Assembly: GCA_951406725.2 (NCBI GenBank)
Contig: OX597823.1
Coordinates: 39,990,001-40,054,000 of the forward strand
Source of the DNA: Octopus vulgaris
Taxonomy: Eukaryota
Direction of reading: 5' to 3'
Length of the DNA: 64,000 bases
The notes under the pieces are model-generated. The model did no database searches, had not been told where the DNA came from, and worked only from the letters and a program-made list of their open reading frames with translations. This document shows, one piece after another, positions 18,968 through 63,662 of the stretch. Position numbers and translations under genes: made by a program. How positions within the stretch are numbered: the first letter of the stretch is position 1; each line of letters begins with the position of its first letter.

Positions 18968-19323
<356 letters not shown>

Positions 19324-40593: not shown

Positions 40594-40619
<26 letters not shown>

Positions 40620-40624
<5 letters not shown>

Positions 40625-40906
40625 TTAGAGACAAAACCACTATTATGCAAATCAAAGAAAGAAAGACTCAATCCAATACATAAAAAATTTTATATAAATT
40701 AAATAAAATTAATTTTATTTAATTTATATAAAATTTTTATGTATTGGATTAAGTCTTTCTTTGTTTGATTTGCATAATAGTGGTTTTGTCTCTAATTAAT
40801 ATTAATATTAATATTAATATTATATTATATTTTACTATAAAATTGGATTCAATCCTAAATCTGATTTTTCCCTGTAAATTTGGATTTATTCCCTAATATT
40901 TATTAT

Positions 40907-40910
<4 letters not shown>
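40620..40910. mobile_element. Spacerless fold-back (40620-40800) plus tail; same family as 62642-63632 but truncated before the ribozyme
   Basis: ttagagacaaaaccactat...atagtggttttgtctctaa palindrome centred near 40710; tail 40830-40905 is the reverse complement of 62645-62722; embedded in (TA)n. Confidence 0.88.
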
Positions 40911-40987
<77 letters not shown>

Positions 40988-57093: not shown

Positions 57094-57407
57094 ACGTTTG
57101 TCCCCGCAACTTAGAGGATCGGCATAAGAGACCGATAGAATAAGTACTAAGCTTACAAAGAGTAAGTCCTGGAGTCGATTTGCTCGACTAAAGGCGGTGC
57201 TCCAGCATGGCCACAGTCAAACGACTGAAACAAAATAAAAGAGTAAAAGAGCAAAAGAATATATGTATATATAATATATATATATATACACACATACTTA
57301 CACATATACACACACATATACACATACACACATATATACATATATATGTGTGTACCTTACAAACACACACACATAACCCATACGGATGTATATTCGCAGT
57401 TTATACA

Positions 57408-57414
57408 GTTCGCG

Positions 57415-57462
<48 letters not shown>

Positions 57463-57472
57463 AAGAGAGAGA

Positions 57473-57503
<31 letters not shown>

Positions 57504-58041
57504 GTATATATATTATGCATATATATATATGCATATTATATAAAGAGAGAGATACATACATACATACATATGTATATATATTATGCATATATATATATGC
57601 ATAATATATAAAGAGAGAGATACATACATACATACATACATATGTATATATATTATGCATATATATATATATATATGCATAATATATAAAGAGAGAGATA
57701 CATACATACATACATATGTATATATATTATGCATATATATATATGCATAATATATAAAGAGAGAGATACATACATACATACATACATATGTATATATATT
57801 ATATATATATATATATATGCATAATATATAAAGAGAGAGATACATACATACATACATATGTATATATATTATGCATATATATATATGCATAATATATAAA
57901 GAGAGAGATACATACATACATACATACATATGTATATATATTATGCATATATATATATATATGCATAATATATAAAGAGAGAGATACATACATACATATG
58001 TATATATATTATGCATATATATATATGCATAATATATATAC

Positions 58042-58072
<31 letters not shown>

Positions 58073-58151
58073 TGCATGTATGTATGTATGTATGTATCTC
58101 TCTCTTTATACACACACACACACACACACACACGCAGACAGAGGCGCGAAC
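57408..58151. repeat. Palindromic compound minisatellite (~60-bp unit, ~9 copies, inside an inverted repeat)
   Basis: Unit ataaagagagagat(acat)n-atgtatatatattatgc(at)n-gcataatat; outer arms gttcgcgcct(gt)n / (ac)n..aggcgcgaac. Confidence 0.9.
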
Positions 58152-58336
58152 ACAACTGTTGGGCCCAAACAATCATGACACTTGTATTAAGACGTGAATG
58201 ACGATGGTGGGGGTTGGTAGGCAGGGAAGTGAATTCTATTTGGGTCGAATTGTGTGTAGTCGGTTACCTTTCGTTGCCAATCTTCTTACCTGTAGGGAGA
58301 AAGCTATTATCCTTACTCTCTCCCTCTCTCTCAACG

Positions 58337-62610: not shown

Positions 62611-62647
<37 letters not shown>

Positions 62648-62822
62648 TAAATATTAGGGAATAAATCCAAATTTACAGGGAAAAAAATCAGATTTAGGAT
62701 TAAATCCAATTTTATAGTAAAATATTATAAAATATTATTAGAGACAAAACCACTATTTTGCAAAACAAACAAGGAAAGACTTAATCAATACATAAAATTT
62801 TAATAAATAGTCAAAAAAACCG

Positions 62823-62865
62823 CCACTACAATCGTTTCTTGTCTTGATCGACAATCTTCAGGTGG
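62823..62865 (-). ncRNA. Type I hammerhead ribozyme (left arm)
   Basis: Mirror of 63493-63535. Confidence 0.8.
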
Positions 62866-62900
62866 ACTTCCAATCGTGGAATATCTGTAAATCCTTCAGG

Positions 62901-62999
62901 CTATATATCGTGGATACTCATATCATCATGGATTTCTGATGGAGTCATGCCTTCCAAATGAAGGTACATTATGACAGCAAGATACTCAGTTTTCTCCAT
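62901..62999 (-). pseudogene. Mariner transposase N-terminal fragment (left arm)
   Basis: Mirror of 63359-63457. Confidence 0.7.
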
Positions 63000-63358
63000 T
63001 TTCCTTGTAATCTCGACACTTGTTTATTGAAAAATCTTATGACCATTGCCAGGAAAACTTTCAGCGACGCTATCCTTCCACTTGTATAGTTATGATCTAT
63101 TCTCTCCCTCTGTGATGTGCGCGTGTGTTTATTTTGGGTAGAAAAGGAAACAAATGACCATCAGATCATGTAGAAGTCTGTAAGTCCTTGCGTGTAATCC
63201 TGAGTATATTCATTTTCTACCCAAAATAAACACACGCGCACATCACAGAGGGAGAGAATAGATCATAACTATACAAGTGGAAGGATAGCGTCGCTGAAAG
63301 TTTTCCTGGCAATGGTCATAAGATTTTTCAATAAACAAGTGTCGAGATTACAAGGAAA

Positions 63359-63457
63359 ATGGAGAAAACTGAGTATCTTGCTGTCATAATGTACCTTCAT
63401 TTGGAAGGCATGACTCCATCAGAAATCCATGATGATATGAGTATCCACGATATATAG
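63359..63457 (+). pseudogene. Mariner transposase N-terminal fragment (right arm)
   Basis: MEKTEYLAVIMYLHLEGMTPSEIHDDM(SIHDI*) matches the MEK.E.RAVIK(Y/F)L.LKG.TP.EIH..M start of the first HTH of mariner transposases. Confidence 0.7.
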
Positions 63458-63492
63458 CCTGAAGGATTTACAGATATTCCACGATTGGAAGT

Positions 63493-63535
63493 CCACCTGA
63501 AGATTGTCGATCAAGACAAGAAACGATTGTAGTGG
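63493..63535 (+). ncRNA. Type I hammerhead ribozyme (right arm)
   Basis: CCAC-CUGAAGA-UUGUC(GAUCAA)GACAA-GAAA-CGAUUGU-A-GUGG; GUA site, predicted cut after 63531. Confidence 0.8.
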
Positions 63536-63622
63536 CGGTTTTTTTGACTATTTATTAAAATTTTATGTATTGATTAAGTCTTTCCTTGTTTGTTTTGCAA
63601 AATAGTGGTTTTGTCTCTAATA

Positions 63623-63662
<40 letters not shown>

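Follow-up and report, generated by a model that had tools for sequence, protein, structure and literature searches.

Spliced host exons joined at the intron acceptor of a Penelope-like element in a palindromic insertion of Octopus vulgaris

Exon trapping in cis has been described for SVA retroelements, with SVA_F1-MAST2 and pt_SVA_D6-STK40 as examples in the available sections of two reports (PMC6139936, PMC9148063). Penelope elements are also known to move host sequences. In the rotifer case of Adineta vaga the accessible text describes an intron-retaining gene, for which an antisense or unspliced template was proposed, and the choice between a sense and an antisense Penelope template was left open in that text (Arkhipova et al. 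2013, PMC3846280). In vitro, the Poseidon element PAc uses two internal starts of reverse transcription, extends both strands of the target and takes uncut RNA as substrate, according to the available part of the study (Frangieh et al. 2024, PMC11167929). A search of the open-licence PMC and bioRxiv literature found no report of capture by splicing by a Penelope element.

The locus described here lies on contig C10 of the octopus assembly, in a stretch of 64,000 nucleotides (G000:C10:39990001-40054000, called the window; positions without a contig refer to it). A sequence-only reading had noticed a perfect palindrome there, and indeed the arms 62726-63145 and 63213-63632 are exact reverse complements of 420 nt, with no mismatch and a 67-nt spacer; in a second repeat computation the complementarity reached 424 nt. 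The insertion almost certainly consists of four spliced host exons joined at the acceptor of a Penelope-like element, arranged as follows.

62615-62641, no strand: left flank, (TA)n target repeat
62642-62725, minus strand: one-sided tail of the Penelope-like element, 84 nt, absent on the right
62726-62874, minus strand: left terminal module of the element, with the acceptor-side end, the hammerhead and an AT-rich end
62823-62865, minus strand: minimal type I hammerhead motif, mirror of 63493-63535
62875-62918, minus strand: host exon 4, 44 nt; source G000:C3:28857159-28857202
62919-63035, minus strand: host exon 3, derived from a mariner 5' piece by exonisation; source G000:C3:28852542-28852659
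63036-63162, minus strand: host exon 2, complete, 127 nt; source G000:C3:28793182-28793308
63163-63212, minus strand: 3' part of host exon 1, filling the rest of the spacer; source about G000:C3:28767673-28767722
63212/63213: inversion junction, with 1-3 shared bases
63213-63322, plus strand: host exon 2 of the right arm, 5'-truncated
63323-63439, plus strand: right copy of host exon 3, mariner-derived, with an ATG at 63359 and 27 mariner codons
63440-63483, plus strand: right copy of host exon 4, stopping at its splice donor
63484-63632, plus strand: right terminal module, beginning at the first base past the intron acceptor; 0/149 mismatches to the native copy L082
63493-63535, plus strand: minimal type I hammerhead motif, predicted to cut after 63531
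63633-63657, no strand: right flank, (TA)n target repeat

The tailed left arm extends to exon 1, with the first 17 nt of its exon 2 inside the spacer, and the untailed arm ends within exon 2. No target-site duplication could be read within the flanking (TA)n, and the palindrome has no 3' poly(A), its ends being element module and (TA)n. The pair of marks that defines an L1-type processed pseudogene, poly(A) and target-site duplication, was thus not found.

The cargo of the left arm and spacer (339 nt) corresponds to four exons in collinear order within 90 kb of contig C3, with 334 of 340 positions identical to the assembled source and five of the six differences in exon 3. The exon 1 part matches its source at 100% and GTAAGT follows there; exon 2 is identical at 126 of 127 positions, with AG before and GTAAAA after it; exon 3 matches at 96% (AG before, GTGAGA after) and exon 4 at 100% (AG before, GTATGT after). 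The donor GT is present at the source for all four exons and the acceptor AG for exons 2-4. As in a processed retrocopy, the introns are gone at exact GT-AG borders and the copy is unlinked to its source. The donor end of exon 4 is joined directly to the first base past the intron acceptor of the element. Among the ORFs listed over 300 kb of the C3 source, all of them repeat-derived or low-complexity, no gene was recognised; the source may be a 5' UTR or a non-coding RNA. Within the first intron of this locus there is another, different ORF of Penelope-like type (G000:C3:28782807-28784303).

The outer 149 nt of the arms and the tail match a large young family, for which a 35-mer gave 233 exact matches. 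One full-length native copy, L082, is a tandem unit of about 6 kb, and 62642-62874 (minus strand) shows 0 mismatches in 233 nt to the part of L082 downstream of the acceptor, in agreement with the earlier proposal of a very recent ribozyme-bearing retroelement. In the comparison of family copies that had been advised, other copies carry other cargo, and the cargo is specific to this locus. The end that the palindrome was said to share with 40620-40910 is 82-87% identical there, in a copy that has no hammerhead core. This copy belongs to an older palindromic stub of the same family at 40594-40945, which keeps the tail and also sits in (TA)n. The window further contains a SINE-like repeat, family D19, in at least 14 copies (9193-61864), and a tandem array with a period of 68-76 bp (D13, 57402-58171).

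The ORF of L082 encodes 839 aa and starts 283 nt downstream of the join point. It has YRDD at residue 360, assigned to the reverse transcriptase, and a C-terminal VYIG at 731, assigned to a GIY-YIG domain. Its nearest Atlas clusters carry the families GIY-YIG, RVT_1 and HTH_animal, at scores of 0.95-0.98; a direct scan gave no significant Pfam family and there was no PDB match. The motifs DKT, CxCX5C, CxxC and CxH are present, DKG, GxKF/Y and CX2-5CxxC are absent, KWK is found at residue 44 with no exact RWK, and the target is (TA)n. Because a single ORF with reverse transcriptase and GIY-YIG, tailed inverted repeats, a hammerhead and an intron beside the hammerhead occur together, the partner can be placed among the endonuclease-bearing Penelope-like elements. 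Judged by motifs as given in the available text of PMC8557442, and not by a tree, it fits a Hydra-type Penelope-like element. The ORF includes a long asparagine-rich stretch (L082, about 2200-2510).

The hammerheads had been called intact. By a hand-made pattern each is a minimal type I motif, but no Rfam hammerhead family backs them: no family reached the gathering score in the window, and no hammerhead appeared at E values up to 10 in 63440-63640. In the predicted centroid fold stems I and II form and the monomer lacks stem III, and the monomer fold is not more stable than those of shuffled sequences (z 0.1-0.4). The stem III octamer is predicted to be able to self-pair, as in dimeric forms; such self-pairing of stem III has been described for dimeric hammerheads of Penelope-like elements, in the accessible part of PMC4209133. 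The predicted cut falls 48 nt past the acceptor, between the cargo and the presumed start sites of reverse transcription. The suggestion that full hairpin formation would sequester the ribozyme was borne out in a folding run, and it would matter only if the locus is transcribed. A non-LTR retrozyme was considered and rejected, since the locus has one inverted pair whose module is identical to the end of an autonomous element; non-LTR retrozymes are tandem head-to-tail non-coding units with a hammerhead in each, as far as the available text describes them (10.64898/2026.07.22.740005). A separate hammerhead-like pattern match at 19258-19296, unrelated in sequence to the element family, may be due to chance.

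In native copies of the element TTTTAG stands directly before the module. The intron of L082 (1,816 bp, GTAAGT..TTTTAG) ends exactly at the join point, upstream of the ORF. A pattern for other joins gave 475 matches, and of the 100 listed the majority terminate in CTT, as element exon 1 does; the 27 spliced native arms, from 30 loci fetched, retain 5-23 nt of this exon. Since genomic copies of the spliced native form exist, the acceptor must be one that is really used, and the copies indicate that the element intron is truly spliced and that spliced and unspliced RNAs have both been copied into the genome. The limit of 23 nt of exon 1 (L131-L160; L082 4583-4605) suggests that transcription begins some 23 nt upstream of the donor, which could explain the intron retention of Penelope elements without an antisense template. 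All the long native copies seen were unspliced. In a second spliced-looking class (L145, L160, L170) exon 1 is separated from the module by four additional bases; it is possibly a subfamily with a shifted donor; L145 retains about 110 nt upstream.

The join of host donor to element acceptor is recurrent. A pattern search for non-native joins ending in G, which fixes the element side of the join and so counts captures at this one element point, gave 11 matches at eight loci, seven of them with host cargo. The eighth (C28:23.18 Mb) was left out of the chimera count, being a variant of the spliced native form. Besides the C10 palindrome the chimeras are the following.

C21: cargo of four exons from 267 kb of C17, joined at the exact donor
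C34: a single exon from a C27/C29 family, with the join on the exact donor in 8 of 9 paralogues, 88-96% identical
C6:121.2 Mb: one exon, source 100% identical, exact donor
C15: seven pieces of an Ig-like receptor, join 4 nt before the donor with 5 shared bases, in 4 of 4 paralogues
C6:133.36 Mb: first approximately 238 codons of Vps54, first intron removed at its donor
C11:64.43 Mb: two C26 exons and a repeat-derived last piece, which in other copies of the repeat continues with GT

The label of Ig-like receptor, with a membrane segment, is our own reading of the translation. Four of the five testable joins fall exactly on the host donor (C10, C21, C34 and C6:121.2 Mb), and C15 lies 4 nt before it. 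Exon 1 of the element (5-23 nt) is retained in none of the seven chimeras. The last exons of Vps54 were not found in the assembly, and the final join of the C6:133.36 Mb chimera is not comparable with its source; about 430 nt of Vps54 coding sequence were seen in the retrocopy only (L090; G000:C11:56349603-56350047), which reflects an assembly gap or a search miss. The Atlas search with this piece gave no informative name, and its identity as Vps54 comes from a separate search. A palindrome of another family adjoins the C6:121.2 Mb chimera (L286, 1702-2075). At L133 (G000:C1:18107572) non-element sequence is followed by 59 nt of the module through a join that does not end in G, possibly a further chimera outside the pattern. 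None of the seven was seen to have been amplified into a subfamily.

From the position of these joins, splicing of some kind very probably made them. The route that we rank first, and to which we give somewhat better than an even chance, is in cis: a host transcript would be spliced into a copy of the element situated downstream in that gene, and retrotransposition of the hybrid RNA would follow. Head-to-head element copies offer an acceptor on either strand. The trap would be an intronic copy off the assembled haplotype; as the cargo differs from that haplotype at 6 of 340 positions, it came from another C3 allele, which could carry the trap. No young copy with acceptor and hammerhead was found downstream of the sources in any of five intervals of 120-200 kb in the one assembled haplotype (C3, 193 kb after exon 4; C6 and C11, 200 kb each; C17, 150 kb; C26, 120 kb). 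Beside nine paralogues (10-50 kb) there was likewise no young copy, only older pieces of 75-92% identity. A diverged copy 83 kb downstream of C3 exon 4 (approximately 72-83% identical) was not accepted as the trap, since the captured module matches the young family at 100%. It also counts against trapping in cis that the assembled allele equals the cargo at 100% in the C6 case (97 nt) and in the last C17 exon (136 nt), and that no hybrid RNA was observed, with no RNA record among those listed.

Trans-splicing, ranked second, is a possible but rather unlikely origin. Here the element RNA would act as acceptor for the 5' exons of an unlinked host pre-mRNA and the product would be retrotransposed. 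The same exact joins of donor and acceptor are expected, the absence of a donor copy from all five long intervals and from the surroundings of the paralogues would be explained, and the seven sources are unrelated and lie on different contigs; moreover, the element RNA has a long AT-rich intron end and a strong acceptor. However, one haplotype was examined and young copies are likely to be rare alleles, a retrocopy and its source allele part by segregation when they lie on different chromosomes, and with introns of 25-110 kb the trap could lie outside the intervals read. Nor did a search of the open-licence PMC and bioRxiv literature find a precedent for a retroelement as acceptor in trans. 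In humans, sources were found for 84% of transductions, though with 35 genomes, which counts against a missing trap in cis; in its favour, SVA sources can be lost or rare, in the sections available of PMC12593883. The missing source copies make the choice between trapping in cis and trans-splicing directly testable. If trans-splicing were true, poly(A)-less palindromic retrocopies could arise with no element copy in or near the source gene.

A third origin, a template switch of the reverse transcriptase (or microhomology repair) from element RNA to an already spliced host mRNA, with no splice at the join, appears improbable. Such switches are known for LTR elements and L1 (PMC5131818, PMC11838501, in the parts available), exon ends and acceptors often have G or AG in common, and at C6:133 Mb and C34 the second arm carries template jumps. 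The C15 join, with its 5 shared bases and a donor missed by 4 nt, would suit it, but this join also fits a splice followed by a 4-nt loss in a short repeat. The other four testable joins are on the donor to the base with only 1-2 shared bases, and nothing would steer a switch to internal exon ends. Furthermore, a switch from spliced element RNA should leave some of the 5-23 nt of exon 1, of which all seven chimeras are free.

The mirror arms were compared with those of native insertions. Head-to-head native pairs (within 12 kb) comprised 23 with both arms unspliced and 28 with both spliced, and none of the 51 was mixed, while approximately half would be expected if the arms drew their RNAs independently. 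This census covers C1-C4, with 82 of 233 matches of the 35-mer and 100 of 475 of the join pattern, up to C4:160 Mb, and the classes were set by search pattern and in part inspected by eye. In the three chimeras in which both arms reach the join (C10, C21 and C6:133 Mb) the host join is the same in both. The lack of mixed pairs and these matching joins point to one sense RNA, or its cDNA, as the template of both arms. Of 7 true spliced pairs, 6 have their longer arm on the tailed side (L139 consists of two separate inserts), which fits fold-back copying but does not prove it. Gene conversion, which had been offered to explain the identity of the arms, is unnecessary, since mirror arms are the normal insertion form of the family and one template would serve both. 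Rare hybrids can be used as barcodes showing that both arms come from one molecule. Spliced joints in both head-to-head arms require a sense template, which bears on the question left open in the accessible text of PMC3846280.

The mariner piece had been central to the sequence-only reading, in which the element picked up a fragment of an unrelated DNA transposon. The captured sequence is instead a spliced host transcript of four exons, one of which is mariner. An open frame of 32 codons does run from 63359, but only 27 are mariner and the last five belong to the next host exon; what was taken as a leader of about 145 bp comprises 110 nt from host exon 2 and 36 nt from the mariner 5' UTR. The short peptide had no HTH_48 match, and Pfam gave HTH_23 only, under the cut-off (E 0.084), and nothing for the 27-aa form. 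One family copy did match HTH_48 (E 4.6e-9). This match, together with 38 other genomic places that resemble the DNA of the piece at 92-96% identity, upholds the mariner origin. The similarity is confined to 63321-63439 and its mirror, no mariner terminal inverted repeats stand at the element ends as they would in a mariner or MITE, and genomic mariners run on upstream into their own intron and end. In the mariner family an intron acceptor lies in the 5' UTR and a donor-like site follows codon 27: in the 26 copies compared, from 27 loci, GT follows codon 27 in 24 and AG is shown in 22. From these splice-like sites and the AG and GT that bound exon 3 at the source, the mariner piece is taken to be exonised at the C3 locus and inherited by the palindrome. 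This abundant family (L034-L060) thereby offers a ready-made cassette exon of 117-118 nt, perhaps exonised in many host genes.

Direct capture of a mariner end, with the hairpin as a source of anti-mariner small RNA, is therefore most improbable: 117 bp per arm are mariner and a transcript across the palindrome would fold as a long duplex, but splice sites bound the piece, three non-mariner exons of one locus flank it, six other chimeras carry unrelated cargo, and the contigs of two other runs have the genomic exon only, a weak hint that the insertion is unfixed. A role in anti-mariner silencing or as an ADAR substrate would rest on these 117 bp of incidental cargo and finds no support.

A fold-back read chimera or assembly artefact is scarcely credible either. 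The arms are 100% identical and none of the listed sequence records spans the whole structure, but its asymmetry is typical of the family (a tail on one side, exon 1 confined to the spacer) and its layout is common to the 51 native pairs. Moreover, a contig of run X1 bridges the joint of exons 2 and 3 with 52 and 51 letters and no mismatch; this run is labelled "DNA?", is possibly the sample of the assembly itself, and run types were guessed. The joint of exons 3 and 4 is crossed by X1 and X2 contigs, X2 being from a second study, and the inversion junction by one of X2, with 29 letters on the short side, where a joint was counted as bridged at 31 or more. In runs X4 and X7 exon 2 was seen within genomic contigs only; such contigs are no proof of absence and give a weak hint that the insertion is polymorphic rather than fixed.

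Under trapping in cis, the donor of a host pre-mRNA would be spliced to the acceptor of the Penelope-like element to give a hybrid RNA. This RNA would keep the hammerhead and the downstream sequence, a presumed binding site for the protein of the element. It may have escaped hammerhead cutting, since the predicted cut lies between the cargo and the start sites and the copied RNA would have to be uncut. Two internal start sites of reverse transcription would yield one end with the tail and one without, and no poly(A) tail would then be needed. At a TA repeat the enzymes of the element would write the hybrid RNA into the genome as two mirror-image copies, with both arms probably made from one RNA molecule or its cDNA.

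These observations suggest an added retrocopy route, in which 5' portions of host mRNAs without poly(A) are capped by a ribozyme module and often inverted and doubled. Standard retrocopy screens, based on L1 or LTR marks, would likely miss or misfile such copies, and it is likely that a way to duplicate gene fragments has been overlooked. Seven cases occur in one young family of one genome, and there may be a large number across all Penelope-like families. Host exons in palindromic copies could also yield dsRNA against the source gene if they are transcribed.

As in SVA trapping, in the available parts of the reports, host exons were probably spliced to an acceptor in a retroelement and the hybrid RNA retrotransposed, and the cargo stops at an exon end. 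The octopus acceptor, however, is the authentic intron acceptor of the element, whereas that of SVA is cryptic, and the enzyme is a Penelope-type reverse transcriptase with GIY-YIG and not that of L1. Also unlike SVA, the octopus insertion has no poly(A), keeps 149-233 nt of the element and forms a palindrome in (TA)n. The palindrome is not an SVA or L1 product but a genuine Penelope-like insertion. Within the Penelope-like elements, the resemblance to the Hydra clade is close in the text available (Craig et al. [quoted passage not shown] The octopus element is larger, about 6 kb with a 1.8-kb intron, whereas those of Hydra are described as mostly under 3 kb, and it has KWK instead of RWK and a tail of 84 nt instead of 30-40 (PMC8557442).

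The two internal starts of reverse transcription of PAc (PMC11167929) would explain the tail here too, and in Penelope of D. virilis the 3' end of an intron likewise abuts helix I of the hammerhead (Cervera and de la Pena 2014, PMC4209133); the available portions of both accounts report no host exons at the acceptor. The mobilisation by Penelope in Adineta vaga, as far as the accessible text of PMC3846280 describes it, shares with the octopus the movement of host sequence in trans between terminal repeats, the inverted repeat with a one-sided tail and an asparagine-rich insert in the ORF. The octopus copy, in contrast, has lost the host introns and is joined at the acceptor, a structure that requires a sense, spliced RNA. 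Thus, with regard to these sources, Penelope-driven movement of host genes with their introns kept was already known, and capture by splicing at the element's own acceptor, very probable here, was not reported in the open-licence literature searched.
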